A DNA stretch of 64,000 nt from Cyanidioschyzon merolae. Its lineage: Eukaryota. The notes beneath the pieces were generated by a model. It had not been told where the DNA came from. It was given only the letters and a program-made list of their open reading frames with translations, and made no database searches. The position numbers and the translations under genes were made by a program. The DNA is taken from the NCBI GenBank assembly GCA_000091205.1, contig AP006499.2; one strand, given 5' to 3'. Position 1 is the stretch's first letter, and each line of letters starts with the position of its first letter. This document shows positions 1,743 to 64,000 of the stretch, piece after piece.

Positions 1743-2781
1743 GCACGTGATGATACCGCTTCTGTCCAGCGCTCGTATCGATATGCTGCGAAAACGATTT
1801 TGGAATATGACCGCTCGTGTCGGGCTGATGACGCCTTGTTTTCGCAGCGCCAAGTCAACAGAGCGCTGGTATCGGATGCTGGCCTTGGGAATCGTCGTCA
1901 TCGGGCTGGCAACTGCAGTGCAGGACCCTTTGGCAATCGTTTACGAACGCAAGCAGGCGGCGTCGTGGAACTGCAAAAGGCGAAAAAGACTCACTGTGTA
2001 CGGAATAATATTTGGCGCGCGGAAACCTCAACTAGCCAATAGAGTCCGGCATTACAACTGGTCAGGTGCACCACTCTCGTCAATGGCTCTGCTTTGCCCT
2101 GGCTCCAGCATACCGGAAAAGCGACTTGGTTGCCATGGAAGCTTGAGCTTCACCAGACGCTTACCGCGATGCGTAACAAGAGCAACATACGACGCTGCCA
2201 ATGGATGCATCGATACGAGTGCGCTTACGCATTTGCGTCCGTTTCTACGCGACTGAATGTTTTCGCTCTAAACAGTAAACCTCGACTGCAGCACATTGGC
2301 GATTCCATGTCGATTCGGAGGCACCGACAACAAACAGTAGACCTGCGCTGATTCAACCAGGGAACAAACTCGTACTGTGTTTCACCGGATGCGACGCGAC
2401 ATCTAATCGCACGCAGATTGGCAGGCCTTCCATAACAATACCTTGGCGTCAGCAGTGATAGCATCTCTGGTTGATAGTGGCAGAATGAGGCAGGCTCTCT
2501 CGCCCACAAACGACTATCTCCGCGTGAAAGCTCTGGAGGGAATCATCGTCCAGTTTTCACCTAAATGCGACGACACGGGAGCTAATTCCATCCACCCGGT
2601 ATCCATTGGCTGCGAATCCAAGTCTGTGAGCGCTTCTCTCAAATGAAGCTGCGATGATGCCCCAGGTCATTGTGAAGGCACCAATAACCATGGATAGCTC
2701 GGCAATGGACCGCTCTCGCAATGTGGCGCGCGCTTCGTACATGCGGATGCTGCGGGATTCTCGCGGTCGTATCCGAACCGA

Positions 2782-5700
2782 TTATGCATCATTCTTGTTC
2801 GTAGCATACGCTGCAAAACCTGACCGCAGGCCGTGGTGAGCAAGCTCCTGCTTCCGCAGCAGCATCTTGCTCCAGCTGATGGTATCCGGAGTGCGCCCTC
2901 GAACGAGCAGTAACGTCTCTACGGCTTGCAACATACGCAGAAGCACGCTCCGCTGCGTCGACGGGAGCACATCCTCTGCTTGACTCCGCAGACGATGCTC
3001 GAGTCCCGCGAGACGCTTACCGCACTCCTCGGCGAAACCAAGTGGCAACGTTCCATGTTCATTATGATGCACAAGCTGCTTCAGGAATAGCAACAGACTC
3101 CCTTCGAGCAAGAGAATACGACGTCGCTGCCGCTGGGGCATTTCGCTGCTGCTGTTCAATCCCTGCAGCCAGTGCAGCACCAACATGAGTCCGAGACCCA
3201 TAGTGGGCGTCTCGAGGTCCGTCCAAGTCATCATTGGCGCCCAGACTCCATAATGACCCGTAAGGTGCAGCGCAATCGATATCAGACGACCCATCGCTTG
3301 CTCCAGTTTGTCCGCGAGCGTCTCCTGGACGATAGTCAGCGTGCCCGAGATCGACGTTTGGGTGTGTCGCTCCCCGATTCCATCCTTCATCGAACTCGAT
3401 AGCATCAGCGGGTACTCAGCAAGTGAACCGCGCAACGAAGCATGCGTCCACATGCCCAGGTCGGGCAACGGAAGCGACAGCCACCGTGGTGCCATTCGGA
3501 GACAACGCAGTGCCGCAGCCAGACTCAAACCGACTTGTTGATAGCGTTGCTGGAGCCATTCTGGAGACCATTGTGACTCCAGTTCTGGTAAGAGATCCGC
3601 TTCGGGTGGCGAAGTGAGCAGCGCTTCGAGAAAACCCGCAATCGCAGAGAATTCAGACAGCATCGCCCAGTGCCAGGCGTAGGTTGTGGACCAGGCCTGG
3701 CGCGTCTCTGACTCACTCAGCCGAAGCGCTGTATCTAACCAATGACGGGTGAAGGCAGCGAGTTGCGTCGGTGCACCCTCAAACGAGGACACGAATGCGT
3801 ACACCTCGAGCCGTAGACGCTGCTGCGTTGCTGCAGTCGTGTGCGCACGCGCTTGCTGCAGGAGCACTGCGTACAATCGGAGCAGCATCAGATACATCAT
3901 AAAGTCCGATGTTGGTCGCTTACCATCTGGAGTTAAGCGTTGATGAATGCGAGCGCTTGAGAGCCGTCCCAGGCTCCAGAGTCCCTGCTGCTGTCGAATG
4001 ATCACATCTGCACAGCGCGCTGAACGCACTGCCCAGTTGAGCAGCAGCAGGACAAGCCACCAACGATGCGTCTGCTTGTTTGGCGGGGTTACCGGCGCAC
4101 AGAGTGCGCTGAAAACGACAGGAAGGAAACGCTTCGCCCACTCGGTTTCATCTAAGCGAGCCGGCGAAAACCAGAACTGACACAGCAGTGCGGTTGCAGG
4201 TTGTAGCGATGGCCAACGAGCCGACCGCTCCAGCAGACGCTGCAGGAGCCCTTCGCCGTACGCAAGCTCCGAGGCAGCGTATATCGTGGAGGCGGCCTCT
4301 CGATGCAAGCCTCCGTGGACGACCTGCTTGCAGAGCGCAAGCACAAGTCGTTCCGTAACACCAACTTCGAGGAGCACTTCGACAGAAGACGTCTCTGCGT
4401 CCGGGCGTAGCAGGCGCCAGCTTTGAATCCCAGCAGGATACCAATCATCGGTGCCTTTCATTTCGCTCATGACGCTTGCTTCCAGACGGTCCAGTTGCCT
4501 TTCGAGCGTCTGCAACAGCATTCGAACGTGGGATTGCATTCGCTGCATATCCAGTGCAGCAGAGGCTGCGAAAGCGATTCCAGTTGTTCGGCAACTCGCC
4601 GCGTTGTCTCCAGTAACTGCTGCTTCCAAGCGACTCAAGCGAAAGATGAGCTCAGTCCATGCCAGGCGTCGCATCGCCCCGAGTCCGGTACCAGTGTCGC
4701 TCGCACACAGACGAAGCAGTACCTGCTCGAGACGCTTCAGTGAAACGCTCCATGAAGCCTGTTGTGCAGGCAACGTCAACACGGGACGCTCCGTGGAAGG
4801 CTGTGGAGCCTCCACGACACACAACAGCAGCTCCAAATTGGTTGCCAAGACGGTCTGATGCAGCCACGGTATCCAAAGCTGGTCGGATGTGGCTAGGCTC
4901 TGGAGGACGAGCGCTTCTTTTCGGCGATTTTGCGGCTCGACGTCGAGATCCCGACTGAGGATCGTCTGCAGCACCAACAGCGTCGTCACTGACCAGAGCC
5001 CTGTGACATCACTTCTGTAGTGTTTGTTCCAGAGGATTTGGCCTTCTGGCCAGAGCACACGCTGCGACTCTTCCGTTTCGCCTATGCTTGCCGGTGGTGA
5101 ACACGTTGCGGAACCTTTCCCGGGCGTTTCGATATCGTCCGTGGGTACACGGCAGAGCAAGGTGATGAGCTCGGTCCACGCAGAAACGAGCGCTGGGTTC
5201 ATCGCCGACGACTTCGGGGCAGCCTCTGCGACGAGTTTGCGCTGTACTCCTTGCGTTGGTCGTGATCGCATCCAAAGTCGGTTCACAAGTTCGAGGAAAC
5301 ACGCGAGCACGATGCTCGTCGTAAAGACTGCTACCGCGGTTACTGAATCTGGTGCTTTGGCGAGAATACGCTTCCGCCAAGGGATCAACATATCTCGAAA
5401 CAGCATCGTCAGCCAGGATTCTACCTCTGGCGTCGACACCTGACCTAGTCCAAGGCGTACGAAGAGCGCTCCGAGCGGAGCGAGCTCCGTCAAGTTCACT
5501 CGCTGCTCCGTCGGAATGAAACACCGCCATTCATCCCAGAGGAGCTGCCAGAGGCGGCTCGAACGCAGCACACCAGATGCTGGTGACGAGAAAGGCGACT
5601 CTGAAGCGCGCCGCTCAGCGCTGCTGCTTCGCTCTTCGGTTTGCTGCGATACCCGGGCTGTAACAGATCCCCAGCTAACAAGCAGAGCGGCAGCATTCGG

Positions 5701-24318: not shown

Positions 24319-25259
24319 CTATGTTCACCACTTAAGTTGGCTGCAGGCGTGCAACCAGGAGATTGTACCTGCTTTTCACGGTTTGCTCGGGAGCATATAA
24401 CAGCGCGAATGCCGGAGCGAACAACGTTACGTCAGTGCAGCAAACCCGTTTCGCAACAATATCGTGTACATGAATATCCACCCGCAGACGTCTCTCAGCC
24501 TTTTCTTACAGGTTTCTGGTATCGGTTTCAGTTTCTCCATATACACCCCGACGCTGTGAGGCTGCCCAACAAAGTTAGCTTGCCGCAGCGCTGCGTGCCT
24601 CGTATTCAGCACAAGCATCTCCTGATATTGATACCAGCGTTGAGGTCTCGGTTCATGGACTCCATGCGTTTGTTGCCGCTGGTTGATCTCACCAATGATA
24701 GGAGACCACGAACTCGTGTACGCTGTGCCATTGGGTGCTCTGTCAGCTCTTCGTGCTGATTTGTCGACGAAATGCTCCGCTGGCCTCGCTCCAACTCAAC
24801 GTCCTAGGGTGTATATTCCAGCTCGTCCCTTAGATTTTTCGAAAATGAACGCACTTGTTTATAGCCTGAGATGACGACCTTCCCGCATCGAGCAGCACAT
24901 GCGGAATAAAGACCAAATGTGCCCCGGTTGGTCACCATGTGCTGAACGCTTCATCAATTCGCCCGGTGGAGCGGTCGTGACGATTCAGGACGCAAAACTC
25001 TCCTTCTATGGGGATGAAACACAGTTGAGAAGAAGGAATGAAACCAGCTCTACCCGTCGATAGAATTGGCAAGCGCTCGAACTGAAGCAGAACGGCTAAA
25101 TACCACTATGTCCAATAGAAGGACTTCACCAGGCGTTTGGGACAAGTCTTCAATGACTCGACAAAAAGAGGGCGCTGCTGCATGAGTGTTCTCTTCAGCG
25201 GAACTGAGGCAGCCAAATGAATCCACCGCAGCTAGAACAGATGATGATGTCGACGTTCT

Positions 25260-26338: not shown

Positions 26339-28225
26339 CTAACGATTCAGAGTGGCAGTGTTGACAGCAGGCACGCGCCGCTGACGCACAGCTCGAGGAT
26401 CGCTTCGATTCGAGACCACGGCGACAATACGTGACCATTTCAGCGCACCGAATGCGACTTCTCCGGCACTGGCGTGCAGCTCAACTAGGCGTCGTGCAAC
26501 GCGCATCTTAGCTTCCAGGACCTCGAGAGAAGCGTCCGTCGGGTCGCAGAGCCATTCCACAAAGTCCGCCATACTAGCCAACGCGACAACTCCGATTCTC
26601 GACAGACTTAGCGCAGCGAATACCGCCGCAGCAGCGAGCCGCTCTTCTTCCGAAGGATGCCGTGCACAGTCCAGGACAATGGGCAGTGCATTCGTGAACG
26701 CCTTGACGGCATCCGCATCCCTGATCGCATCAGTGAACAGATGCAGCACCCTTTGCTGCCGAAATTCGAGGTCGGATTCGGAGGCTCCGTACCCTGAGAC
26801 GGCTGCTGATGAAAGCGGCTCGTCGAGACCTGCCAGGAACACACTCAAAGCACGCAAGGAGGCCACTCGAATATCGCACACGCTCGCCGTATGAATGAAA
26901 CGAAGCGTTAGTTTCAAGGTGTCAACGTCCGCAAGCAGCACGTCCATGCCGCGTTCACAGAGCCCCAGAGCGCCTACCGCGGAGATCAGATGCACCAGCA
27001 GCGTCGTCCGACGAACTTGATCAAGTTGTACGGACCAGTGTGCTGTCTCAGTCTCGCCATCTACCACGTGAACCAAGAGAAAGCGCCCAAGAATCTCTAC
27101 GAGATTGGCGTCCATCCAAGCGTGGAAGGCGCAACGGCTGGACCCGGCACTGGTGCGCACGAACCTCAGAATCCCACACATCCAAATAAACCAGCGTTCC
27201 GCCAAGTCGCTCGAGGCAGGCTCGTCTGGCGCCAACAAATGGGCAAGGTGTTGGCGTAGCAGCACATCGAATACCGAAATTTGGTCGAGCAACTCGGCTG
27301 CTATTGCACTGCGTTGCATAAAAGCCCCAAGCACATCCAGCAAGTTCAAGCGGAGTAGCAAGTCCTCATCCAAACGAACAGGAGCTGCGATTTTGGCTAC
27401 AAGCACGGTTGGCAACAGCCGACGTGCGGCAATCTCTGCAACAGACGAGTAGTCGCAGATCTCAAGCAGCAAGCTCAAGGCTCGGATATGCGCAACCGCA
27501 CCCGCTGCACCCGAGAGCATCTCCTGTACGAGGATTTGCGCGCCTCGTGCTTCGCTGAAGAGCACAACTGCGCCGCGGAACGGCTTCAGCTGTACCAGGT
27601 TCTTCAGGATTTTTTCACAAAGTCCCGCAGCTTCGGTGGATGGATCATCACGGAAGCTCAGCAGCACCAGTGACAGGATATCGCTGGCGTGCTGTGCAGT
27701 TGTGCTGGGAGCGTTCACTTCTGGACCTGGCGCTTGTGCGGCCTCTATCTCCGGACGAAGCTCGTTCGTACTTTCAAAACGTTCGATAATGGTGTCTGCA
27801 ACTTGCTGACAAAACGCTTCAGGCAAGTCATTCCGTTCAAGAAGGAGACAAAGCAGACGAAGCGCAGCTGTGCGTACCAGCGGGTACCGGCTGCTCAGAC
27901 CGAGCTGGATGAGCTGGAGCACCTGCTCTATAGGTACGAGGTGACGCACTCGGGCACTTGTTGCAGAAAGCTTGACCAGTTTCTCCATTGTTTTCGTTAA
28001 TACCCGGATGGAATCAAATATGTTGTCAGAAGGTACCGCGTCGCTGTCTGAAGCCTCGAGCGACGCCCGCACCGCGTACTCCTCCAGTGTCCAGCCCAGC
28101 AGCGGTAACGGCAAACGCTCCAGCAAGTCCAGTGCCGCACACTCCGACAGTGCTCCAGCGTCTACATATTCCCTCACTGTATCCAATACTTTATCGGGAG
28201 TCCAGTCATTGTGGTGAGCGTTCAT
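26339..28225 (-). CDS. Armadillo/HEAT-type helical repeat protein (hypothetical)
   Basis: 628-aa ATG-initiated ORF (cat at 28223-28225). Leu-rich amphipathic repeats throughout, with no catalytic motifs. Confidence 0.45.
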   Translation of the reverse strand: MNAHHNDWTPDKVLDTVREYVDAGALSECAALDLLERLPLPLLGWTLEEYAVRASLEASDSDAVPSDNIFDSIRVLTKTMEKLVKLSATSARVRHLVPIEQVLQLIQLGLSSRYPLVRTAALRLLCLLLERNDLPEAFCQQVADTIIERFESTNELRPEIEAAQAPGPEVNAPSTTAQHASDILSLVLLSFRDDPSTEAAGLCEKILKNLVQLKPFRGAVVLFSEARGAQILVQEMLSGAAGAVAHIRALSLLLEICDYSSVAEIAARRLLPTVLVAKIAAPVRLDEDLLLRLNLLDVLGAFMQRSAIAAELLDQISVFDVLLRQHLAHLLAPDEPASSDLAERWFIWMCGILRFVRTSAGSSRCAFHAWMDANLVEILGRFLLVHVVDGETETAHWSVQLDQVRRTTLLVHLISAVGALGLCERGMDVLLADVDTLKLTLRFIHTASVCDIRVASLRALSVFLAGLDEPLSSAAVSGYGASESDLEFRQQRVLHLFTDAIRDADAVKAFTNALPIVLDCARHPSEEERLAAAAVFAALSLSRIGVVALASMADFVEWLCDPTDASLEVLEAKMRVARRLVELHASAGEVAFGALKWSRIVAVVSNRSDPRAVRQRRVPAVNTATLNR

Positions 28226-28471
28226 TCAGCAACAGGTTATCACGCTTTGAGATAGACATATCCAGAAGCAATCTCCTGATCGGCGGCGGGGCGCAGGTCA
28301 GCCGCTGCGCGTGCACGCGCACCTGGCAGATCCGGCGGGCACGAGACACGACGCTCTGGTCGCTCCTGAGGGGAACAGTGATCCTGATCATTGGCGTGCT
28401 ATTCTACTGTAAAAGTTGTATTCGCGTTGAGGTCGTAGCAAAGTATAGGTTTTCTGTTCCATCCTATTCCG

Positions 28472-30876
28472 ACCCTCAATTGAGTATATTCAAGTGTTTT
28501 TTCGAAGTATATAACAGAAGCGTTCAAAGAGCGTTCGTTTTCAAAAAAAATTAAAAGGAAAGTCATGGAAATGGAAGTGGAGGATCCCGGAGGGCCGATA
28601 TCGCCGGCTGTCGGAAAAGAAGGATAAACATGGCGGAGCAAAGAGGAACAGGAATTGATGAAGAATCAAAAGGGGGCGAGGTTCTAGGTCGAAGGCGGCA
28701 AGAAAGGCAACTGTACAACGAGATAGTGGTGAAAGCCTGTGTTCTTAAATATATCAAGGATCCGTAGAAGGAAAAGTTGCGGGACGCCATCAAAAACCGT
28801 CTCGAGTCGTACTCCATGAGTATTATAAAGGCTTCTTCAGGACCGACGCATTTGGTGAGGGAGATGTATCGCTACGTGACGAACATGGAAACGGTCGGGA
28901 TTCCGGACGAGTTTTTCGATAACACATTTTTTCGTCACTTGATGCTTGGCACAGGGGAAGAGCGGAAGGATATAAGAGCCAGTGCATGCCCTTCACGAAC
29001 AACATCCCTTTTAGAGGTTCGAGGGTAATCGAAACAAGGGGGCAGGGGTATTTACGACTATGGGGCGATGAAGTACATCACGAACCTGAAGAACCATTTG
29101 ACAACGAACCTCGAACGTTTCATGATACGCGCCGTGTTTGCACTCTACCGGGGCCTGTCTCGCAAAGGAATATGGGCGATTATCAATGGCATCATGAACG
29201 ATCGAAACTATGGAAATGAGGTCGAATTCGTTGACAAGAAGGAGTCAAACCAGAGCACGAATGAGGATTCTGTAATCCGTGCGGCTATTAAAGAGCATCG
29301 TGCGGTCTTGGGGTTGGCGAATCCAGCAGAAAAGATATCAGCGTTGAAAAAAGATAGGGAAAGATACGATCGCCTCATTCTGCGCTATTCTGTGTTTCTG
29401 GACCGAGAGCTCGAACGCAAAGCGGAGATGAAGCTGAGTGAAGAGACAAAGGAAGAGTGGGAGAGACGGAAGGCTTTCCGAATGGGTAAGCGCTTCGACG
29501 TGGTTCCAATGTGCAAGATCAAGTCACATTTTATGACTATCGACTCCGGCCTCTTTTACGGCATCATGAAGGAGATCTGTCCGGAGTTCGATGTAAGGAA
29601 GACAGAGTTCCCCGGTGAAAACCGTGAGACGTACTGGAAGAATATCTTCGATTTCAAACGTCTCAAAGTCAGCAAACAAAAGGTATTCACTGGGTTGATC
29701 GAAACCGATGGAGTAGCCACGTGTGTACAATATCGGCGCTTGAAGAAAAATCGTCCAGTTCCGCCCTCGGCTTCGCCCGTTACGAAGCATGAAGATGAGA
29801 AGGAGTCGGATCCAGCGATGCAGGAGGTAGAGGATAACGACCTAGTCGTTGACGCGGAGAAGCATGAAGATGAGACGGATGCGGATCCTGCGATGCAGAA
29901 AGTGCAGGGTAACGACTTTGTCGTTGGCGCGGATCCCGGAAACACAATATCATCACCATCGCAGTACCCAAGCATGCGAAAGATGATATCAACGGCAAAT
30001 TATTCCAGAGCGACATGCGTCGGTTGAGGTCCTCTAGAGCAAGATAATATCGAAAAAAGTCGGGAATCATGAATGCAAGAAAGAAAATCGAGACGTAGAA
30101 TGCAGGAATGAAAGGGCACCTGGAAGCTTTGAGCGAGGTGACGAGCCGCAGAGCGGACTTTCAAGCTTTTCCGGAATTCATGGAAGTTCGTGTTGCTCAT
30201 TGGGAGGCGCTGTGGAAAGAACATACAAAGCCTCGGTGAGCTCGATTGCGTATGAACCTATACGGTGGGAGGCAGCGGGCGTTTGCCAACTTTTTCAATC
30301 ATTTGAGCGCCCTCTAAGAGATTGAAAGTCAGAGGCCCGTAGTAGCTTATGCAACAGGGCGCTGAGCGCCCAAAAAAGTACGTACACCAGCTCCAACGAC
30401 GAGAGCGTACAAAGAGTGTGCAAGGCGTTACGTAACGATACCGATAGATGAGTTCCGAACAGCGTATGTGCATTATGAACTGGGGTGCGTACTTCAGACG
30501 GTCGAAATGGAAAAATGCCAACGGAGTCCTGAAGACATAGCAAAGTACGGGCCGCTGACCGAAGAGCAAATGGGAAGGAGAGCGAAAGTTCGAGGACCAC
30601 TTTCATCAGTAAGTACAACCAATGATGGCAAGACGCGTATGGAGTTTGTGAATCGTGACTTTAACGCCGCTATCAATATACGGAAGTGCGCGGTGCTGGA
30701 GAGAAGGCGTCCACAGCTGACACGAGAGCGCTTTGTTGGACAATTACTCAAAGCCGAACTATATGAGAAACAGTTGGAAGCAGTAGTAGGTGGCCGTTCC
30801 AAAAAGACCGGGAGACTTCTGCGCATCAGTTGTAGACGTTTCGTCTAGGGCGGGTTTCTCGCCACTACTGTGCACC
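28472..30876 (+). mobile_element. Fanzor/TnpB-like (IS200/IS605 OMEGA-family) element, copy 1, heavily decayed
   Basis: Homologous end-to-end to 60867-63189 at roughly 80 % nt identity. It encodes the Fanzor N-terminal region, RuvC-I (VVGADPG), a zinc-finger-like segment (YVHYELGCVLQTVEMEKC) and RuvC-III (MEFVNRDFNAAINIRKCAV). Left-end motif: GTGTTTTTTCGAAGTATATAACAGAAGCGTTC. Right-end block: GCCACTACTGTGCAC. Confidence 0.65.
28565..30848 (+). pseudogene. Fanzor (eukaryotic TnpB-like RNA-guided nuclease) pseudogene, copy 1
   Basis: The reading frame is split into pieces at 28565-, 28777-29028, 29068-30027 and 30468-30848. Relative to copy 2 it has a roughly 110-bp internal deletion, a 69-nt tandem duplication ([12 protein letters not shown]...), a 1-nt deletion just after GADPG, an in-frame TAG (ctctagag vs ctcgagag) and a TGA in the last segment. 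Confidence 0.6.
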
Positions 30877-31202
30877 GTTGGCAGGAACGCTTTTCTTTGG
30901 AAAGGCGTTTGATGGTGTACACGGATGCGTGCATGCGTGCGTGCATGCGTGCGCAACATCCCGCTCACAGTGAATACGCACAAAGCATTGTCGTTGTTCG
31001 CCGTGCAGTGCCGAGAATGCTGCACCGCTGCAACAGCAGTGCGCGTCTCTTGGCACTGCTAAGCGCGCTTCGCCTGCATGTCGCCCATACACCGTCGTTA
31101 CGGACCCAGCGACTGCATCATGGGCGCTGCATTAGTGGCAAACCATCGGTGTCTGGTTCACCGCCAGGAAAGCAGAGTCACCCGCGCCTGCATGGGTGGC
31201 GT

Positions 31203-44494: not shown

Positions 44495-45035
44495 ACGAAG
44501 GAAAAGCTATGGAAGAATTTGAGGTGTTCTCGGTGAAGCTGGTGCTTTCGGATGACCAATGCATGAGTGTGTGTGTGTTTGTTTTCGTAGAATGGTGCTC
44601 GTATGAGGGCAAGAGCAGCACCATGAACACGTTCCAGATGCAAGGCACGAACTCGGATCGCATGGACAATGCATCTGTATACTGCAGCATGATCATCTCG
44701 AAGTGGTAATCGAACGATGTTGACACGGTTGCAAACGCTAGAACGGCAACATCTCCTTTGCTTTTCTCGACGCACGTGCAGCGCCATGATGCCCATTGCG
44801 TATCTGACACCGCTTCCTCTGCTGCTTACTGTGCATCGTTTTCCGCACCATATGGACGACGCCGCTCGTAAGGCATTCGCGAGCGCCCGCGTAACTTGGA
44901 CGAGGGAATGCGTCCACCAAGCGCAAGCGCTCCCTACGACTCTGTTTAAATGCCGTTGCTTGGAATAACCGCACATGCCGACGAGGAATCGCGGCACTAG
45001 AGGCCCGTGTCGAAGCACGGTCTCGGTTTGCGTGC

Positions 45036-45985
45036 TCAATAGAAACGCAACAAACGTGCCTTTCTTTTTTTGTGCTGGCTTTCCAGAACGCGATCAGGTC
45101 TGTGCCGCTGTTCCCGGGAAAGCGCACATCCCATCTTTTCCTGGTATGAGAAACAGGAGTTTCGTGGTGATGCGAAACGCAACAAACGTGCCTTTCTTTT
45201 TTTGTGCTGGCTTTCCAGAACGCGATCAGGTCTGTGCCGCTGTTCCCGGGAAAGCACACATCCCATCTTTTCCTGGTATGAGAAACAAGAGTTTCGTGGT
45301 GATGCGAAACGCAACAAACGTGCCTTTCTTTTTTTGTGCTGGCTTTCCAGAACGCGATCAGGTCTGTGCCGCTGTTCCCGGGAAAGCACACATCCCATCT
45401 TTTCCTGGTATGAGAAACAGGAGTTTCGTGGTGATGCGAAACGCAACGAACATGCCTTTCTTTTTTTGTGCTGGCTTTCCAGAACGCGATCAGGTCTGTG
45501 CCGCTGTGCCCGGGAAAGCGCACATCCCATCGTTTCCTGGTATGAGAAACAGGAGTTTCGTGGTGATGCGAAACGCAACAAACATGCCTTTCTTTTTTCG
45601 CACTGGCTTTCCAGAACGCGATCAGGTCTGTGCCGCTGTTCCCGGGAAAGCACACATCCCATCGTTTCCTGGTATGAGAAACAGGAGTTTCGTGGTGATG
45701 CGAAACGCAACAAACATGCCTTTCTTTTTTTTGTGCTGGCTTTCCAGAACGCGATCAGGTCTGTGCAGCTGTTCCCGGGAAAGCGCACATCCCATCGTTT
45801 CCTGGTATGAGAAACAGGAGTTTCGTGGTGATGCGAAACGCAACAAACGTGCCTTTCTTTTTTCGCACTGGCTTTCCAGAACGCGATCAGGTCTGTGCCG
45901 CTGTTCCCGGGAAAGCACACATCCCATCTTTTCCTGGTATGAGAAACAGGAGTTTCGTGGTGATGCGAAACGCAACGGCCGCAAT
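45036..45985. repeat. Tandem array, 132-bp unit x about 7.2 copies
   Basis: The CCCGGG landmark recurs at 45113, 45245, 45377, 45509, 45641, 45774 and 45906. Units are about 90-95 % identical and each contains the palindrome TTCCCGGGAA. It is intergenic, between uL4 and the 987-aa gene. Confidence 0.9.
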
Positions 45986-47660
45986 ACGGCCTCTACCTCC
46001 ACCCGAACCAGATGAGAACGGGGTATTGCATTGCTCGCGCTGCTCCTGCCTTGAGATTTCTTACCGCCCGCTTCGTGGATATACAGCCTCTACATTTGCA
46101 ATCCATGACAAAGCACTTTCGTATACATATGGAGTTGTAGGAGTCTCGGTCATGTTTTCGGAGTGCTTGTGTCGATCCGTTGCCGCTCGGGATTCGTCGT
46201 GCCATCGGATTGGAGCGGATTCACGACGACCTCGAACACGACTTTGTAAAATCGTCGATGACGTCATCAGAGTCGGACGTGAAAAAATCCACGCTTTTCG
46301 ATTCCCTCAGTGCTCTATACGCAAACGACACACGCTTCAACTCGATCGTTCTGATTCAGGGCAATTCGTGGGCACGGCAATTCGTTCTGATGAATCGATG
46401 AGGAAAGAAAACTCGATGTCGTGCTTTGACGACTGGGTCACGAGCATATACCGAATGTTCATTGGGCTTCTCACGTCAATTCATCGATATCGTTCGAAAG
46501 AGAAATCCTCTTCTCTTTGTGGTCAACGATGAAGCGGCATTCTACAGCAGCAGCGTGAGACGTCTCAGAAGCTGCTCCCCGAGGCTTCCGTATCCTCTGT
46601 TTGCCTGGGTACGGGTCTTGGACGCAAACCAGAGTCACTACAGCGATCGATAGCTTTGGAGCGTGCGTCACCGCCTGGAACGACGAGCGTGCAGATGGGA
46701 CGAAATGTCTCGACTAGTTCCGCAACCTGGGTTTTCCATCGGCTGCCTGTTTCATCGATGAGCTAAATCGCTTTCTCCAATTCCGCAATCGAAACGAATC
46801 GCGCGCACTTGCATATGCAGCAGACAGCAAAGTCGCGGCGAGCATCGCTCAGAAGAAGCCCGTGATCTTCGGGTACAGCAGCGAGCGCGGAAACAGAACA
46901 GGGCATCCATCGGTGCCGTCAGCAACTTCCAAGGACGCGTGTGTCGAGCCGTGAAGCACGGGGTCACGCGCCTCAAGTCGGTGCTCGGAGAACAAAGTGT
47001 TGCGGGTGTGTATAGGAGCATCTGAGCGGCATCAAGCGTTACCGCTGCGAAGCGCGCTCAGAGACTCTAGACATAGATGATGAAATGAACAAGCGACATG
47101 CAGACTGCGACTTTTGCCTGTATATGTATCTTATCGTGAGCAACAACCGATAACTGCGAGCATGGGGCTTTCACGTTGCCATCAACGTCCTTCCACTGCT
47201 GGCAATGTAGCTGGAGGAACGGGAAAGACTTTCCTGTATTACGCCGGAGATAAAAGAACGGAAAGAAGCAAATCGACGAAAAACCGCGGAAAACCCTGTT
47301 CTAATTCCAGTCGCAGGAGACCCGAAACATAGTCCGTACGCCCAAGTTAGTCGACTTGACCCGTTCCATTTTATGCGAATATGGGTGTACACCAGCCTGA
47401 GCGCCCCAGAACAACAACAACAACAACGGCTTTTCTGCTGCGCCGATTTTCCAAAAGCATCCGGACTCTGTGGAACGATTTTTCGTGGAAACATGCGGAT
47501 ACCAGCATGAGCGAACATGCATGGACGTGCTGCTCACGGACTTGTACACACTGTGCTCGTCCTCGCTTCCCAGGATTCGCGTCACGATGCTTCCGCCTGT
47601 CACTGGCTGCGTAGTGCCCCACGTTACGCCCTGACGCTTACACGTCGCAGCTGCAGCAGG

Positions 47661-52679: not shown

Positions 52680-54210
52680 CAAGGTTGTTGCGAAACGCTC
52701 ACTGGCCGGGCGCTTCCTGTTCAGGCGGTTCAATGGTGAGCGGGGCAGTCGTCGCCAGGGCAGTGGCGATAGATTTCGAACCCCAATGCAAACGCATAGG
52801 GCGTGTATCTCAGTGAAATGCTATAGAAACCTGTATATTCCAAAGAAAAATCTGCGAAGCGTCGGAGTGATAAAGTGCATGCCGGGGACAAGCGCTGATC
52901 CGACGTACCCGTGGCATGCTCGGAATCGAGTCACGACTTGGTGATACCTTCCTGCGCACATCAGCGCACTTTTGCTTCACGGACGTACGCGAAGTACTGA
53001 TGAACGATGGAACAACATATGTTTCTACCGATTGCGCAGGAAAAATCGTAAACGATATATATATGGCGCTGCTATATTCATGGATTGCTGGACGGATCGT
53101 ACCAGTGCCTCGTTCGCGCGAGAATCGCATGACTTTACACCTCGCGACTGATTTTTACATCGCCAGACTTTCTGTTTTCAGCACCATGTCCATAAAGAGT
53201 ACTACACGAGTACCTCGCGAGCCCGCTCGACACAAGGCTGTTGGACGCTCCCGATGCACGAGACATTTCCGGATGTTGGTTGAGGCATACAGGTCTCCGT
53301 GCAGAATGCCTCTGCCTATGTTTGCCTGCGGAATCGCATCATTGCAAGACGCTCATTTTCGATTGCCTCGCCAGTTGGCGTTCGATCAGCTTACCGTTCA
53401 CCATCTCGTGCATGCGACTATTCACTACGCTCTTCTTCTGTGCACGGTTCAGCGTACAGCCATGCTTGTGCAGCTTGCGTATCGTCCTGAATATATCGAT
53501 GGAAATTGTCCGGCATGGATTGGTGCACTCTTTGGACGCTCTCGTTGAATGAGCAGGTGCGCATCCAGTTTGACAAGTGCTGTATTGGATGCACGGAACG
53601 TTCAGGATAAGCATGCGAAGAAGCGTGCTTCACTCATCGAAGGACTTTCGAATACCTGATTTGAACAAGTAAGGCCGTTTCATCCAATTACCATGAAACA
53701 TATCAGTTCCTTTCACCTCTTTTTCCAACCCACAAGATGCATTCCTTTTGTTGAACACATCCCAGATAAACACCCAAAAAAGTCCTAATGGTCTAGGCGT
53801 TCTAGAATTCACCACCCTAGTTATACCGACAATCACCATTTGCGTGTCCGTGCATCTTCGACGAGTCGCTCGCGGTATCGACCGCCCCATCCGCACCGCA
53901 GTTGCGCTGCAGCGTGCAACAGCGCATGCGATCCTGCATCAGCAGCTAGCCGCGAACCTGCATGGCACGCGGCATCCACGCCGCCGAGTCTCCAAAGCGT
54001 ACCAGGAACACGAAATCCCAATCCCGAAACCCGAACGGTCTGGTACGAAGAAAGCATCAATGCAGCTCCGCATGTCCATACCCATCGCACACATGAAGAA
54101 GCACACCAGGTACTGGAATGTAGCCTCTAGCAGAGCATCCCGGTATTGGGTGATCGTTCCCGCCCACGTTATCCCGGGATCTCGCTTCAACGATGATTGT
54201 ACAAGCGAAT

Positions 54211-54515
54211 CGCCCTCTTTAGAGCCCCTAAAGGTGGACGCTGTACAGATCGTCCTCTCCAGCGCACATGAAGGCTGCCGCTGTACAGATCGCCCTCTTC
54301 AGAGCCCCTAAAGGTGGACGCTGTACAGATCGTCCTCTCCAGCGCACATGAAGGCTGCCGCTGTACAGATCGCCCTCTTCAGAGCCCCTAAAGGTGGACG
54401 CTGTACAGATCGTCCTCTCCAGCGCACATGAAGGCTGCCGCTGTATAGATCGTCCTCTTCAGAGCCCCTAAAGGTGGACGCTGTACAGATCGTCCTCTCC
54501 AGCGCACATGAAGGC
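54211..54515. repeat. Tandem repeat, 80-bp unit (two diverged 40-bp halves) x about 3.8 copies
   Basis: AGAGCCCCTAAAGGTGGACG recurs at 54221, 54301, 54381 and 54461. Each unit is CTGTACAGATCGTCCTCTCCAGCGCACATGAAGGCTGCCG + CTGTACAGATCGCCCTCTTCAGAGCCCCTAAAGGTGGACG. It lies about 100 bp upstream of the Pol-X ORF. Coordinates here may be off by 1. Confidence 0.85.
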
Positions 54516-54626
54516 GGACATCGACGCGCATGCACCGAGGCGATCTCTCGCCAAATATCTCTGAGGGAAAACGAGAGGGCTCTCTACTGTACCTCAGGTG
54601 CGCGTGCCGCTACCAAGTCCGATTGA

Positions 54627-57994: not shown

Positions 57995-58861
57995 TCAGGG
58001 AATGAATACCGTTTTCGTAAGCCCGCCATACACTTTAATCAGCATATCGCCCGCCAGGTTCAGGATAAACACTGCGCCAACGGTGCGGATGCCTCGCGGC
58101 ACGAGTCCCGAAAAAAAGAAGCGGATACTTTGTTTCTCCTGGTACACTTTTCGAGCGGTTTGGAAGAAATTTCTATAACGCTTCCCGACATCCGGTGTTT
58201 CATTTGGATCGCCCGGGTGGGGAATATCTGCCTGCTGGATGGTCTTGATGGTATCCGCCCACTGCGAAGCGGACGCCGCAACAACCCCAGCGATGATGCC
58301 GCTGGATGCGAATGCGACCACGCCTGGTCCACCTGTTCGCGCCTCAATTTCGGCCCGAAGAACTGGAGCAAGCCCTAAATAACCCCCCGTGTAGATACCC
58401 TCTCGAATAGCGGTGGCGAGAAACCCCTTGTAGAGTCTGAACGGCCCCTGCCGAGCAACGTTCACGAACTCTGAAACGAGGGTTGTCCCGCGTTTTTGTT
58501 GCTGAATCATGACGAGTTCCGCGGGCGAACTTACCGTTGCGGAGAGCGCACCGCCAAAGCACGCCGCTGCAATCTTTTCCCCATTGGAGAGACCAGTGTC
58601 GGAGCCAGCGTCCGCGTGCCGCGCAGCAAAGAAGTTGCGACCAATGCCGGTCCCCGCAAACTGGATACCCGTGATCGGGGCAATGCTCGCTGCATTCACG
58701 AAGAGCCCTCTGTACCAGTGGCTTGGGCGAAAGACTATTTCAGCGCTCCGTTGAATTTGGTTCTTGAAATAAATTGTCGGTTGTTGAATGCAGAGTTCGA
58801 TGACACCGGCCAAGGCGCCGATGCCAACGAGCTCACCCGGTCGTAGTTTTCGTTCCTGCAT
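57995..58861 (-). CDS. Divergent mitochondrial-carrier-family-like protein
   Basis: 288 aa made of three roughly 95-aa repeats, each with a hydrophobic helix followed by a degenerate Px[DE]xx[KR]-like stretch (PTIYFKNQIQ, PAELVMIQQQKRG, WADTIKTIQQ). Gly-rich helices are present. The carrier signatures are only partly conserved. Confidence 0.5.
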   Translation of the reverse strand: MQERKLRPGELVGIGALAGVIELCIQQPTIYFKNQIQRSAEIVFRPSHWYRGLFVNAASIAPITGIQFAGTGIGRNFFAARHADAGSDTGLSNGEKIAAACFGGALSATVSSPAELVMIQQQKRGTTLVSEFVNVARQGPFRLYKGFLATAIREGIYTGGYLGLAPVLRAEIEARTGGPGVVAFASSGIIAGVVAASASQWADTIKTIQQADIPHPGDPNETPDVGKRYRNFFQTARKVYQEKQSIRFFFSGLVPRGIRTVGAVFILNLAGDMLIKVYGGLTKTVFIP

Positions 58862-60866
58862 GCTCTACCAAAGCCGCAGCCTCCACCAATAACGTACAGA
58901 ATGAAAACGTAGTCCCAGAAACGTTCGAGCGCCTCTGGAACCCCGACTTGTCCACAAGGCGCTGCTCGTGCTCGTGGCGTGCACCCCAGTGGTGCAGCGT
59001 CCGGGCACCACGCAGGCAACGCTACGTGTCCATGCACGCATCGATCGCACGTATCGATCGATTGATCGATCGATGCGCAGCGGCGGCTAGAGGCGCTCAG
59101 CGGCCGCCGCTGCCGCCTGTGCATCCGGTCCGGTGCCGGGGTGAGCACGACGCGCCTGCTCGAGCGCGAAGCGGCAGCGGCTCTTCGCATGCAGTGCCTG
59201 TTCGTTGTAGCGAGGTTTGTTCTGGGTCGGCGTTGGGTCATTCGACGAAATGCTCTCCGACGCACGGGCGCTGGTCGTTGGCGATACATGAATACGAGCT
59301 GGATGGAGAAAGGAATAGCGGCATCGGGCTGAGCGCTGGGAAGCGGCGCGTCGATGCGTGCGTGCGCTGCTGCGCTCTTTTCCCTGATCTGCGCGGGCGA
59401 TGTGTGTCTCTGGCGTTTCCGCATCGATGCAGCAGGGATCCGAATAGTGATCTGAGCGTCGCTTTCTCGGTTATCCTATGACTGCGAAAAAGTGTCGAGC
59501 GCGGAATTTGCGGTCGACTGCAGCATCGACGGAGCGGATACGACGCCCGCTCCCTGGCGACGTCGATTTGGGGCGCTGGCAACCGCGGTGGCCAGCGGGG
59601 CTGTTCACACCCAGCGGTATGCGAGCGCTGAGGTGTCGCGCAGAACGGTTGACCGTCTCCATGGCGACGCTACTGAGACACCATGCGCAATAGCCGGTGT
59701 GACATGAAGTGCCGGATGCGATCACGCGGCTTTGCTGGACGATTTCGGATGCTTCTCGTAATCGAGCGGCATGCTTTCCGAATCACTGAGAAAGCGCGCT
59801 TCCGGGGCTTCGAACACGCATCGCGCTCCGCTGATGCATCTGGAGAACCCGGCACTGTGGTCAGCTCGAGGTCGGAAAATGTGCTGCTCGGCTTCGCCGG
59901 CTGGGAAACGGAATCGCATCGACACGAAGTGTGAAGAAGACGCTGTCTGCGTTCTCTCGTTGCAAGACAGCTGAGCGTTGTGTTCAGCGGTGCCCTGGTG
60001 CCCAGCAGCGCAACCGCGTCCATCTATGCGACGTTTCACCAATGACAGCCACGTGCATGAGCACTCGCACCTGACACATCGTTAACGTTCTGAAAACAGC
60101 ACCGATGCGACCGCCCCCGTCTGCTTCTGGCCAAGGAGCGCTCCCGACGTACAGTTAAGGAGGTCGCGAACGGTGTGTGCGGCACGCGCCGGTTGCGTCA
60201 CACCGGTACGTTCCGAGCGAGCGGTTCCCCCACACGCAGCCGCAGAACGCTAAACCATCCTCTGGACCCCAAAACGCTGGTGCAAAGAGCCGCCCCCAGC
60301 CAAGTACCCTGTCTATGTGGAAGGCATTTCGCACTGGTGCATGCGCCTCGCCCACCTGTGCATCGCGTGGGCGCGCGGCGAGCATTGCGGCGAGCGCAAA
60401 TGCAGGATACCGGGAGATAATTGCAACATGGGCGACGCCCAGACGCAGCTTAACTGCCCCTAGTCCCAGAATACAATGCGTTGCGGACGATTTGCGCAGC
60501 TCACGTAGCAGTACCTGCCACTGCAGAGTCGAACGGGTGACGAGCCTGGCAGACTGCTCCGGCTCGCGGGACCTTTCGCGTGGAAGGAAAACTTTCTAGA
60601 ATACGAAAAGCTTTTCCCCTTTCAAAGTATATCACAGAAGGGGAAAGCAATACATATACATGCCGGTGAATCCAGAGTCTATGTGCGTTAATCTAAATAG
60701 CGCGCGCTAGATACGCGCATCACGAGATCTGGCTGGCACGAGATACGATGCGCATGTCGCCGTTGAAGAGAAAAGCGATTCCGATCAGAAGCGTGTTCTA
60801 CCGGAACAAGTTGGATTTCCGTTGGAGTTTTACAAAAGAGCAGTTTTTTCATTTCATTTGGTCTTC

Positions 60867-63189
60867 AACCCTCAAACAAGTCTAGTAAAGTGTTTTTTCG
60901 CAGTATATGACAGAAGCGTTCGAAGAGCGTTGTTTTTCAAAAAAACTAAAAAATGAAAGCTATGAAAAAGCAAGTCGACGATCCTGGAGGCTCAGTGTGG
61001 CTGGCTGCCAGAAAAAAAAAACAATAAACATTACCGAGTCCAGAAGAAAAGGAAGAGAAAAAGAACCGAAAGGGGGAGGCTCTACGTCGAAGGCCGCAAG
61101 AAAGACGACAGTACGACGAGATGGTGGTGAAAACCTTTCTTCTTGGACATACCAAGGATCCCTGCAGGGAAAAGTTGCGAGACGCTGTCGAAAAACGTGT
61201 CGACTCTTACTTCAGGAATATTGTGAAGGCGTCGTCAGGACTGATGCATTTGGCGAGGGAGATGTATCGCGACGTGACGCACATGGAAACGGTCAAGATT
61301 CCGGACAAGTTCTTCGACAAGACCTTTATTCGACACCTCATGCTTGGTACAGAGGAAGCGCGGAGGGAAAATGAGCGGGTGCACGTCCTCCACGGAAAAC
61401 ACTCCTTTTACAGCTTTAATGGTACTCGATACAAGGGTGACCGGGATATGTACGACTATGGGGCGATGAAGTACCTCACGAACCTGAAGAACCATCTGAT
61501 CGTGAACCTCGAACGTTTCATGATACGCGCCGTAGTTGCACTCTACCCGGACCTGTCTCGCCAAGGAATATGGGCGATTATCAATGGCATCACGAAAGAT
61601 CGCAGGCGTGAAGACGAGGTCGAATTTGTCGAGAAGAAGGAGTCAAACGAGAGCACGAATGAGGATTCTGTAATCCGTGCGGCTATGAAAGAGCATCGTG
61701 CGGTACTGGGGTTGGCGAATTCAGCAGAAAAGATATCAGCGTTGAAAAAAGATGAGGGAAGATCCTATCGCCTCATTCTGGGATATTTTGTGTTCCTGGA
61801 CCGAGAACTGGGACGCGAGGCAGAGATGAAACTGGGTGAGGAAAAAATGAAGCGTGGGAGAGACGGAAGGCTTTCCTAATGGGGAAGCGCTTCAACGGCG
61901 TTCCAATGTGCAACATCAGTTCACATTTTGTGACTATCGACTCCAGAATCCTTTACGGCATCATGTAGGAGATCAGTCCGGAGTTCAGTGTCAGCAGGGA
62001 GGAGTTCTCCGCTGAGAAGCGGGAGACGCACTGGAAGAACATCTTCAATTTCAAACTTCTCAAAGTCAGCAAACAAAAGGTATTCACTGGAATGATCGAA
62101 ACCGATGGAGTAGCCACGTGTGTACACTATCGGCGCTTGAAGGCAGATCGTCCAGTTCTGTGTTCAATATTGTCCGTAACGAAGCATGAAGATGAGAAGG
62201 AGGCGTATCCTGCGACGCAGAAAGTGCAGAATAACGACTTTGTCGTTGGCGCGGACCCCGGAACCACAAATATCGCAACCATCGCAGCACCCAAGCGTGC
62301 GGAAGATGGTACTGACGGCAACCTACGTCGGAAAGACGTGCGTCTTTTGAGGCTCTCGAGAGCAAGATACTATCGAGAATCGGGAATCATGAATGCAAGG
62401 AAGAAAATTGAGGCATGGAATGCAGGAATGAAAGAGCACCTGGAAGCCTTGAGTGAGATGACGAGCCGCGGAGCGGACTTTGAAGCTTTTCGGAAATTCA
62501 TGGAAGTTCGTGTTGCTCATTGGGATGCGCTGTGGGAAGAGTATACAAATCCCCGGTGCGCTCGTCTGCGAATGAATCTGTATTGTGGGAAGCGGCGCGC
62601 GTTCGCGAATTTTTTAATGAGTGCCTTGAAGGAGAATGAAAGTCAGGGCTCGTGGTAGCGTACGGAGCAGGGCGCCGGAGGATACAAAAAGGGTGTACAC
62701 CAGCTCCAACGGCAAGAACGTACATGGAGTGTGCACGGCGTTTTGTTACAATACCTGTAGATGAGTTTCGAACATCGTATACACACCATGAGCTGGGTTG
62801 TACACTTCAGAGAGTGGAGATGGAAAAGTGCCACCGGAGCCCTGAAGATATAAAAAAGTATGGACGGCTGACGGAAGAGCAAATGGAAAGGACGTCGAAA
62901 GTTCGTGGACTCCTTGCATTAGTAAGTACAACCAATGATGGAAAGAAGCGTATGGAGTTTGTGAATCGTGACTTTGATGCCGCTATCAATATCAGGAAAT
63001 GTGCGGTGATGGAGCATAGACCTCCAGAGTGGACAAGAGTGAATTTTGTTGGACAACCTCTCAAAGTCGAACTATATGAGAAAAAGTTGGAAGCAGTATT
63101 CGGTAGACTGTTCAAAAAAACTGGGAGGCATCTGCACGTCAGTTGGCGACGTCTCGTCCAAGGCGCGGTTGCCGCCACTACTGTACACG
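60867..63189 (+). mobile_element. Fanzor/TnpB-like (IS200/IS605 OMEGA-family) element, copy 2, less decayed
   Basis: Same left-end motif (GTGTTTTTTCGCAGTATATGACAGAAGCGTTC) and right-end block (GCCACTACTGTACAC) as copy 1. It encodes RuvC-I VVGADPGTTNIATIA, RuvC-II-region AFANFLMSALKE, the zinc-finger-like FRTSYTHHELGCTLQRVEMEKC, and RuvC-III MEFVNRDFDAAINIRKCAV. Confidence 0.7.
60953..63170 (+). pseudogene. Fanzor (eukaryotic TnpB-like) gene, copy 2, disrupted
   Basis: Coding potential of about 740 aa is spread over three frames: 60953/61121-61879, 61879-62658 and 62652-63170. There is a 1-nt deletion near 61850 (relative to copy 1), an in-frame TAG at about 61966 (AAG in copy 1), and a frame change at 62642-62670 that coincides with a GT...AG 29-nt segment. 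Copy 1's stop codon (TAG) is CAA here, so the ORF runs on to 63395. Confidence 0.6.
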
Positions 63190-63241
63190 CCCGACGTCGT
63201 TCGACTTTCGAGCGGCGTTTGGCCGGTGTCACCTCTAATCC

Positions 63242-64000
63242 ATGTCAGGAGTGGAACTCCCAGAAGCAGAGACGAGGTCAGTTCTTTCCGATGCGATTCA
63301 AGTGGCGGTTCGTGTTCGTCCTATTCTTCCGAAAGAAGCAGAGACTAGGGGTGCGGCTGAGACCTGGCGCGCTGTACCTCACGCAGGTCAAGTGATCCGC
63401 GTTGGCCGGCTTCCCACGGGTGCCGGAGGCACGACGACCTGCCCGACTGTCTTCTCGTATGATTTCGTGTTCGGTAAGGAGTCCACCAACGTAGAAGTCT
63501 ACGAAAAGGTGGCGAGGCCTCTGGTTGAAAGCGCTCTAGTTGGTTACAATGGCACCGTCTTTGCCTATGGGCAGACGTCTTCCGGGAAAACGCACACCAT
63601 GTGGGGCAGCGAGGCGGATCCCGGTGTCATGCGTCGGGCTGTACGTGACCTCTTCGAGCTTGCGCGCCGAACGCCTCAGCGAGAGTTCCTCATTCGGGTG
63701 TCTTACCTGGAGATCTACAACGAGACTATCAGAGATCTGCTGCATTCGAACCCAGCCGTGACCAATGTCCGGGTTCTTGAGGATAGCGATGGTCGCATCT
63801 GCACCGATGCGCGAGAGGAAATCGTTGTCACTGCTGAGCAAGTCTGTGAGTTGCTCAAGAATGGCGAGGCGAAGCGTATGACCGGAGCAACGGACATGAA
63901 TGAGCGAAGTTCTCGCTCGCACACGATCCTGACACTAGTGATTGAGAGCAGGGAGCGCGCTGCGGAAGACTCAACCTCTGGGGATGCCGAAGACTCGTCA
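63242..64000 (+). CDS. Kinesin motor domain protein (5' part; continues beyond the window)
   Basis: ATG at 63242. IQVAVRVRP..., the P-loop GYNGTVFAYGQTSSGKTHTMWG, and switch-I NERSSRSHTILTL are all present. There is no stop before the window end. Confidence 0.85.
   Translation, partial: MSGVELPEAETRSVLSDAIQVAVRVRPILPKEAETRGAAETWRAVPHAGQVIRVGRLPTGAGGTTTCPTVFSYDFVFGKESTNVEVYEKVARPLVESALVGYNGTVFAYGQTSSGKTHTMWGSEADPGVMRRAVRDLFELARRTPQREFLIRVSYLEIYNETIRDLLHSNPAVTNVRVLEDSDGRICTDAREEIVVTAEQVCELLKNGEAKRMTGATDMNERSSRSHTILTLVIESRERAAEDSTSGDAEDSS

Follow-up and report, generated by a model that had tools for sequence, protein, structure and literature searches.

The Fanzor proteins are eukaryotic and viral homologues of the bacterial RNA-guided nuclease TnpB, and the described system closest to the locus considered here is CMe-1A, the single Fanzor1 family of the alga Cyanidioschyzon merolae (PMC3627910; Bao & Jurka 2013, Mobile DNA 4:12). 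In that report the family has about 150 copies, each with approximately 80 % identity to the consensus, which is about 3 kb long, and part of them are still intact; terminal inverted repeats (TIRs) are absent, target-site duplications (TSDs) were left undetermined, and the first 635 bp at the 5' end match TE-N2_CMe, a repeat in its own right, at 95 % identity. Here we describe a segment, at 60386 to about 63226, of a 64,000-nucleotide stretch of C. merolae 10D chromosome 17 (the window; positions are counted from its first nucleotide, and features are on the plus strand unless stated otherwise). The segment is almost certainly an old, fixed and inactivated insertion of CMe-1A, a moderately repeated, TIR-less element of the nuclear genome whose sole gene encodes a Fanzor1 protein.

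The window was placed by six of its long open reading frames (ORFs), which were identical residue-for-residue to annotated proteins of the CMQ series, and it has a composition of 57 % G+C with long intronless ORFs, features that had suggested a trypanosomatid host until the exact protein matches ruled this out. The reference for comparison was the 3,169-bp CMe-1A consensus together with its 734-aa protein, CMe-1, both taken from the supplements of PMC3627910. In a blastn alignment, consensus positions 333–3137 matched window 60386–63188 at 84.4 % identity over 2.8 kb (E=0), the resemblance being collinear over this whole length and not restricted to short motifs, and the repaired 738-aa translation was 78 % identical to CMe-1 across residues 1–734. 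These two comparisons identify the segment as a 5'-truncated or diverged CMe-1A copy, hereafter copy 2 (60386–63226; consensus 333 to about 3169), which lacks consensus positions 1–332 and whose alignment at the 3' side reaches about 63218–63233, through the 3' hairpins described below. A second copy, copy 1, corresponds to consensus 658–3169 at window 28315–30907 with 84–85 % identity, and the two copies are about 81 % identical in nucleotide sequence. Two diverged Fanzor1 relics also lie in the 64-kb window, and 344 related stretches were found in metagenomes.

A sequence-only reading of the locus had proposed a pseudogenized Fanzor/TnpB-like element in intergenic DNA with a paralogue at 28.5–30.9 kb, and the match to CMe-1A and CMe-1, a profile that finds only Fanzor1 proteins and a Fanzor1 fold all agree with that proposal. 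The boundaries it had drawn for a discrete unit were too narrow, falling short of the element by about 480 nt on the 5' side and about 40 nt on the 3' side. Copy 2 shares with the published family its host species and its layout of a 5' non-coding region, a single intronless ORF and a short 3' tail without TIRs. It differs from the consensus in that positions 1–332 are missing, the frame is shifted twice and interrupted by two nonsense codons, and the stop is lost. The family has been known since 2013 (PMC3627910), and copy 2 is an ordinary dead relic of it.

The Fanzor1 pseudogene occupies 60953–63161 and is read in three frames; the stitched ORF of 738 aa agrees with the earlier estimate of roughly 740 aa. 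It opens with an ATG at 60953, followed by a second ATG at 60962 that is the counterpart of the consensus start. Aligned to the consensus, the frame carries an in-frame TAA (61025–61027) in the basic N-terminal region, a 1-nt deletion in an A-run at 61838–61845 that causes the first frameshift (consensus 1783, window 61842), a TAG at 61966–61968 where the consensus has AAG (Lys), and a second 1-nt deletion at about 62647, followed by the residues VVAYGAG (62652–62672). In addition there are an in-frame +AAA insertion at 61012 and an in-frame loss of 6 nt at 62618, and the natural stop position (63159–63161), which has TAG in copy 1 as in the consensus, reads CAA here. Owing to the two −1 frameshifts, the two nonsense codons and the lost stop, copy 2 is unable to encode a nuclease. 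The three lesions given previously (near 61850, 61966 and 62650) were all recovered, with four more overlooked: the TAA at 61025, the +3 at 61012, the −6 at 62618 and the change of the stop to CAA. The suggestion that an N-terminal A-run had slipped in both copies did not hold, because the in-frame +3 in the A-run is confined to copy 2 and copy 1 owes its N-terminal frameshift to an insertion of 2 nt at 28676.

To place the encoded protein among known nucleases, the repaired translation was used in a database search, which returned 53 relatives, including the near-intact 752-aa protein P0001 (67 % identity) and distant ones at 31–41 %. A family profile search of 1.84 billion representatives then recovered 3,774 clusters at E<=1e-3, with full-length and collinear homology, from which an alignment of 80 sequences (A2) was built. 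Searched against the PDB, the A2 profile matched exclusively three Fanzor1 proteins, PpFz of Parasitella parasitica (9cf0, E 6.9e-25), SpuFz of Spizellomyces punctatus (8gkh, 4.3e-18) and GtFz of Guillardia theta (9cer, 5.4e-14), with the DPG, DE(F/Y)(R/K)T(S/T) and NRD motifs in register. The same profile gave repaired copy 2 a score of 568.7 bits and also scored the published Fanzor1s VCa-1, VCa-2, CVu-1 and CRe-1; the Fanzor2 protein ACa-1 was not detected by it.

The fold was assessed on the homologue P0048, 41 % identical to repaired copy 2, in place of the broken copy. AlphaFold2 run with A2 gave a model of P0048 with a predicted local distance difference test score (pLDDT) of 90.2 and a predicted template modelling score of 0.87; a run from a shallow alignment had reached a pLDDT of 51.6 and was not usable. 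In a Foldseek search of the PDB, the P0048 model placed SpuFz, PpFz and GtFz on top (E 5.7e-18 to 1.7e-15, template modelling score, TM, up to 0.72), with a full-length match to SpuFz (E 5.7e-18, TM 0.63/0.70), followed by weaker matches to Cas12X, Cas12f, Fanzor2 and TnpB at 1e-5 to 1e-3. The prediction for P0048 has the Fanzor1 architecture, WED-REC-RuvC-NUC with REC insertions, and agrees with the RuvC fold that had been anticipated. By sequence profile and predicted fold, the protein encoded by CMe-1A is shown to belong to Fanzor1.

All RuvC active-site motifs are still recognisable in copy 2, and the four segments singled out in the sequence-only reading, VVGADPGTTNIATIA, AFANFLMSALKE, VDEFRTSYTHHELGCTLQRVEMEKC and MEFVNRDFDAAINIRKCAV, are present at the positions given there. 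The TDG motif of the Fanzor1 WED domain, named as a Fanzor1 motif in PMC10711439, is found at 62101–62109 within IETDGVATC (62095–62121), and its D is invariant in the 80-sequence alignment. The RuvC-I strand VVGADPGTTNIATIA lies at 62242–62286 with the invariant catalytic Asp of DPG at 62254–62256; its VVGADPG (62242–62262) aligns with VVIDPNKRD of SpuFz1. The segment AFANFLMSALKE at 62599–62634 had been taken as the RuvC-II neighbourhood. It is not the catalytic RuvC-II site, since the canonical strand, VVAYGAG at 62652–62672, contains no glutamate and the catalytic Glu is in VDEF. This alternative, invariant Glu (62763–62765) lies in the VDEFRTS segment VDEFRTSYTHHELGCTLQRVEMEKC (62757–62831), which aligns with LDEYKTS of SpuFz1, consistent with the rearranged RuvC-II and alternative glutamate described for all Fanzors (PMC10530073, PMC10711439). 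The RuvC-III motif MEFVNRDFDAAINIRKCAV was placed at 62952–63008 by alignment and by the A2 profile, with the catalytic Asp at 62970–62972; in its core, FVNRDFDAAINI (62958–62993), the R, D and N are invariant. The catalytic D, E and D are invariant in both the nine-sequence alignment (A1) and A2; the metal ligands in the SpuFz1 structure are D383, E541 and D606 (PMC10432273).

Among characterised systems, the solved Fanzor1 proteins SpuFz1 (8GKH, 9CEU-9CEZ), PpFz (9CF0-3) and GtFz1 (9CER-T) are the most similar in fold, with TM 0.54–0.72 over about 670–800 aligned columns. They also share with the CMe-1 family the DPG, TDG, alternative-Glu and RD motifs, a eukaryotic host, carriage on a transposon and a structured 3' end after the ORF. 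They differ in that identity is only 11–16 % and that in the CMe-1 clade the NUC/TNB domain no longer has its CxxC...CxxC zinc ribbon. The published Fanzor1s scoring best on the family profile were VCa-1 and VCa-2 of Volvox carteri (170.6 and 157.5 bits; PMC3627910), in which a C4 finger is likewise not obvious downstream of the (D/N)EFR motif; however, VCa-1/VCa-2 are from green-algal hosts and their similarity is far below that within the Cyanidioschyzon family. Bacterial TnpB (ISDra2, 8H1J) and Cas12f are alike in the RuvC fold, the D-E-D chemistry and a guide RNA from the transposon right end. Their fold matches are much weaker (Foldseek E 1e-4 to 1e-3, TM about 0.2–0.3), the CMe-1 family falls below the Pfam threshold, and, unlike CMe-1, they have the canonical RuvC-II glutamate, a zinc ribbon and a TnpA partner. 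The Fanzor2 group (mimivirus ApmFz2, 9B0L; ACa-1) comprises eukaryotic or viral TnpB homologues which also have a rearranged RuvC site, but these are shorter, closer to TnpB and IS607-associated; ACa-1 is missed by the family profile, and the fold match to ApmFz2 is E 3.1e-4 with TM 0.22. In the CMe-1A copies themselves, the long ORFs at 60386–63226 and 28315–30915 were Fanzor-frame fragments only, with no TnpA gene of Y1 or serine-recombinase type among them, and the flanks were not scanned with a TnpA-specific profile.

Only about 60–75 nt follow the stop codon in CMe-1A, and the layout of this tail is constant over 38 distinct copies: a hairpin H1, then ACTACTGTACAC, then a hairpin H2, then GTTTG and 12–15 GT-rich nt past the published consensus end. 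In copy 2, H1 (GGCG...CGCC) lies directly 3' of the stop position at 63162–63176, and the nearly invariant, single-stranded linker ACTACTGTACAC at 63177–63188 joins it to H2. The terminal hairpin H2 (63189–63223), defined by folding and by comparison of the 38 copies, has a 12-bp core stem, GACGUCGUUCGA-CUU-UCGAGCGGCGUU. The copy 2 tail has a minimum free energy of −30.2 kcal/mol (z = −2.4 relative to shuffled sequences), and for the 38 tails the mean z was −1.67, with 15 below −2. At the position of H2 there are at least two sequence versions in different registers, CGUUUUUC-UUUU-GAAAGGCG and CGUCGUUCGA-CUU-UCGAACGGCG, and the tail of locus L017 shows a clean compensatory change from G-C to U-A. 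Judged from these sequence patterns, the double-hairpin tail is a probable candidate for the last part of the guide RNA (fRNA/omegaRNA) scaffold.

In characterised Fanzor1s the guide RNA derives from the element right end and may overlap the stop codon, its flank-derived 3' extension is the guide, and a short 5' adjacent motif is needed (PMC10432273, PMC10530073, PMC10711439). By analogy with SpuFz1 and GtFz1, the Fanzor1 protein of intact CMe-1A relatives would bind a structured RNA from the element 3' end, comprising the end of the ORF and the tail of about 65 nt with H1 and H2, and the extension of this RNA into flanking DNA would act as the guide. The resulting ribonucleoprotein (RNP) would be expected to cut DNA having a short adjacent motif and a match to the guide, via the Asp of DPG, the alternative Glu of VDEF and the Asp of NRD. 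As proposed for TnpB, such cutting may bias the inheritance or retention of the element and would not catalyse transposition.

Several results weigh against a Fanzor1 assignment with a functional nuclease and guide RNA in the family. In single-sequence searches, copy 2, its ORF pieces and the repaired protein gave no Pfam TnpB/Cas12 or PDB match, and the nine-sequence profile had none in the PDB. Family-wide, the Pfam TnpB-type models OrfB_IS605, OrfB_Zn_ribbon and Cas12f1-like_TNB stayed below the gathering score, the best being P0053 on PF07282 at 21.7 bits (cut-off 26.3; E 2.4e-4). A profile search against TnpB/Fanzor models, put forward previously as a check, was thus empty at the level of the single sequence, and it was the 80-sequence family profile that matched Fanzor1s. 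The empty single-sequence searches are what a chance set of motifs in a non-coding repeat would give. Set against the 3,774 collinear clusters, the Fanzor1-only profile matches, the fold match and a bias between codon positions, this explanation is exceedingly improbable, and a chance cluster of short TnpB/Fanzor motifs was ruled out by the consensus match together with the profile and fold matches.

The remaining difficulties concern function. The C4 zinc finger, part of the original definition of the Fanzor/TnpB motifs (PMC3627910), is missing between the TS and RD motifs: the zinc-finger-like segment of the sequence-only reading, VDEFRTSYTHHELGCTLQRVEMEKC, is present in copy 2 but degenerate, and copy 2 and CMe-1 show HH...C...C, that is 2 His and 2 Cys with no CxxC. 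Of the 80 clade sequences in A2, 47 could be parsed, and 44 of these lack CxxC. Because of the missing finger, nuclease competence of the CMe-1 subclade is only putative; CMe-1 was classed as Fanzor1 by the original authors despite its zinc-finger region (PMC3627910). The hairpins H1 and H2 could equally be DNA-level cis elements for mobilisation. An Rfam scan of 60000–63600 gave one chance-level match to a bacterial small RNA (E 0.86). A longer terminal stem between the GT-rich nucleotides and a conserved CACCGCTGGCG was considered and found unsupported by a permutation test, in which duplexes between a copy's own arm and tail had a mean of −8.82 kcal/mol and cross pairs one of −8.69, with 1578 of 5000 permutations equally good.

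The preservation of H1, ACTACTGTACAC and H2 in copy 2 alongside its broken ORF raises the question of whether the copy is dead as a protein gene yet active as RNA, its guide RNA, with the flanking kinesin 5' region as the guide, being loaded in trans by Fanzor1 from intact copies. Intact copies have been reported (PMC3627910), and about 20 additional stand-alone fRNA copies exist in Chlamydomonas (PMC10530073). However, the tail has diverged by 0.167, about the neutral rate (0.19–0.21), the last 30 nt are the most diverged part of copy 2, and a near-full ORF was found in only 2 of 80 environmental loci. On balance we regard trans-loading as improbable.

The reading of copy 2 as an old, inactivated insertion is supported by its recurrence in the environment. 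Hot-spring metagenome contigs contain the same broken copy at 98.2–98.9 % identity together with the neighbouring host genes, which indicates that the insertion is old and has become fixed in the populations sampled. In a set of 53 non-redundant copies, the mismatch to the consensus at codon positions 1, 2 and 3 was 0.127, 0.105 and 0.189 respectively, compared with 0.19–0.21 in non-coding sequence. This bias suggests that part of the divergence of the family arose under protein selection, and fits the long-lasting coding capacity of CMe-1A remarked upon in PMC3627910.

Copy 2 is intergenic, between a carnitine-carrier gene on the minus strand (57998–58861) and a kinesin-motor ORF whose first ATG, at 63242, is about 10–25 nt past the element 3' end (window 63226–63245). 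The promoter or 5' untranslated region (UTR) of the kinesin gene would therefore overlap the insertion, given how close this ATG sits to the element end. Host co-option, in which copy 2 supplies the kinesin promoter or 5' UTR, would accord with this spacing and with the fixation of the insertion in every environmental contig reaching the site. Fixation is nevertheless what one would expect of any old neutral insertion when the genome is compact, and the surroundings of copy 1 differ, its neighbour being a 3,642-aa gene placed tail-to-tail with it. Moreover, the kinesin start is a predicted first ATG, and, unexpectedly, no homologue was recovered when its N-terminus was searched at E<=1e-60. 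Co-option is given a slightly lower probability than trans-loading, and copy 2 is better explained as a dead relic.

Comparison of multiple copies also refined the structure of the element at its 5' side. The non-coding segment 60386–60699 (consensus 333 to about 640) was identified by blastn as the remnant of a 5' module akin to TE-N2_CMe (PMC3627910). It is followed at 60700–60718 by a GC-rich hairpin, GCGCGCGCTAGATACGCGC, which marks the start of the core common to all copies and whose stem is retained with differing sequences (GCGCTC-GGT-GAGCGC and GCGCG-gtcgata-CGCGC). Many environmental copies, as well as copy 1 (at about 28300–28315), begin at this hairpin, at consensus 640–690. At least four unrelated 5' modules, TE-N2 included, precede it in one copy or another (loci L002-L081), so that the first 640 nt or so of the consensus are apparently an interchangeable module, and the 3.2-kb consensus as published appears to be one composite among several. 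As a separate observation, the TE-N2 module occurs in either orientation, with head-to-head pairs in L009, L047, L050 and L058. In full-length copies (T)GATTTTTTT(C) immediately precedes consensus position 1 and about 12–15 GT-rich nt follow position 3169, which suggests that the published consensus is slightly short at both ends.

The ends gave few indications of how the element moves, and no transposase was found. No inverted repeat connects the ends of copy 1 or of copy 2, a search for TSDs found no sequence of 8 nt or more common to the flanks at 11 full-length loci or at the two window copies, and no empty site was recovered via the flanking host genes, each contig either carrying the insertion or breaking there. 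One candidate empty site, L084:1-97, was rejected: 16 nt short of the ATG of the CMQ418C orthologue the contig turns into inverted sequence from within that gene, which most likely reflects a fold-back in the assembly at the repeat boundary. Homology between the 5' flank and the 3' tail, of the kind expected for terminal direct repeats or circular permutation, scored no higher than shuffled controls except at a tandem arrangement in L032 and L035. At this one locus (L032:1459-3212, L035:2590-4047) a TE-N2-like module begins 55 nt after a CMe-1A 3' end, tail-to-head; it is the sole true coincidence of 5'-flank and 3'-tail sequences.

The lack of TIRs and of a detected TSD, the constant 3' end with its terminal stem-loop and GT-rich or microsatellite tails, the variable 5' modules, the 3'-only relics and the presence of a hairpin near either end of the core are all features that a retroposon-like or rolling-circle-like passenger would show, that is, not a DNA transposon but an element for whose movement another locus supplies the enzyme, acting through the 3' hairpin. 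Against such a passenger stand the lack of poly(A) and the carriage of other Fanzor1s by many DNA transposon superfamilies (PMC3627910, PMC10711439). No reverse transcriptase or Rep/HUH gene turned up nearby, although no dedicated examination was made. Most of the apparent 5' truncations fall at the edge of a contig or are internal deletions of the kind usual in DNA transposons; a long interspersed nuclear element-like origin, which the 3'-only relics had prompted, was rejected on the same ground. A passenger of this kind has, in our estimation, about as small a chance of being correct as trans-loading.

A broader proposal, which we consider doubtful although slightly less improbable than these alternatives, is that CMe-1-type elements are the tip of a very large zinc-finger-less Fanzor1 subclade (the 3,774 clusters). 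Its members would be minimal units of about 2.5 kb, with a GC hairpin at the 5' border and a double hairpin at the 3' border, swapping 5' modules and spreading without a transposase of their own. The double hairpin would serve as a compact fRNA scaffold, and propagation might be driven by the Fanzor RNP through homing-type repair or by an unrecognised hairpin-recognising enzyme.

Copy 1 is a short form of the element, extending over 28315–30915 (consensus 658–3169 plus a few nt, from blastn and end alignment), and is more decayed than copy 2 as judged by lesions relative to the consensus. It carries an internal 75-bp tandem duplication at 29784–29947. The 75-bp unit, which codes for KHE(D/E)EK..DPA.Q.V..ND.VV immediately before RuvC-I, varies in copy number, being present once in copy 2 (62181–62269) and in the consensus, twice in copy 1 and four times in the environmental protein P0001 (L001:10001-12259). 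A (GCGTGCAT/GTGC)n microsatellite at 30920–30960 abuts the 3' end of copy 1 and is longer in the orthologous metagenome contig L076; GT- or TG-rich runs terminate several other copies too. Copy 1 starts 90 nt upstream of the ATG of CMQ418C (26339–28225, minus strand), a 628-aa hypothetical protein that falls in one 90 %-identity cluster with CMM108C from another chromosome, which points to a recent segmental duplication.

Elsewhere in the window, the two diverged relics at 24520–24950 and 53176–53611, both on the minus strand, retain only the C-terminal 100–140 Fanzor1 residues, including the RuvC-III region, with 38–55 % amino-acid identity to CMe-1, P0048 and P0133. Older or different Fanzor1 families are their probable source. 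Two tandem arrays were also observed, one at 44896–46120 with a 132-nt unit in about 8–9 copies, lying within overlapping long ORFs of both strands, and one at 54169–54555 with a 40-nt unit in about 7–9 copies.

Taken by itself, copy 2 was a correct call of a catalogued repeat and adds little. Its host is a convenient algal model, the genome being tiny, complete and almost intron-free and homologous recombination easy, and the approximately 150 old CMe-1A copies, some reportedly intact, could provide a natural system in which to study what a eukaryotic element gains from its Fanzor. Tentative leads for reconstituting a CMe-1 RNP may come from the two-hairpin tail at the 3' end, the absence of the zinc ribbon from a large environmental clade, the modular 5' regions and the refined element ends. 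What value the locus retains lies mainly in drawing attention to a Fanzor1 clade that lacks the zinc finger and has a compact 3' hairpin tail.

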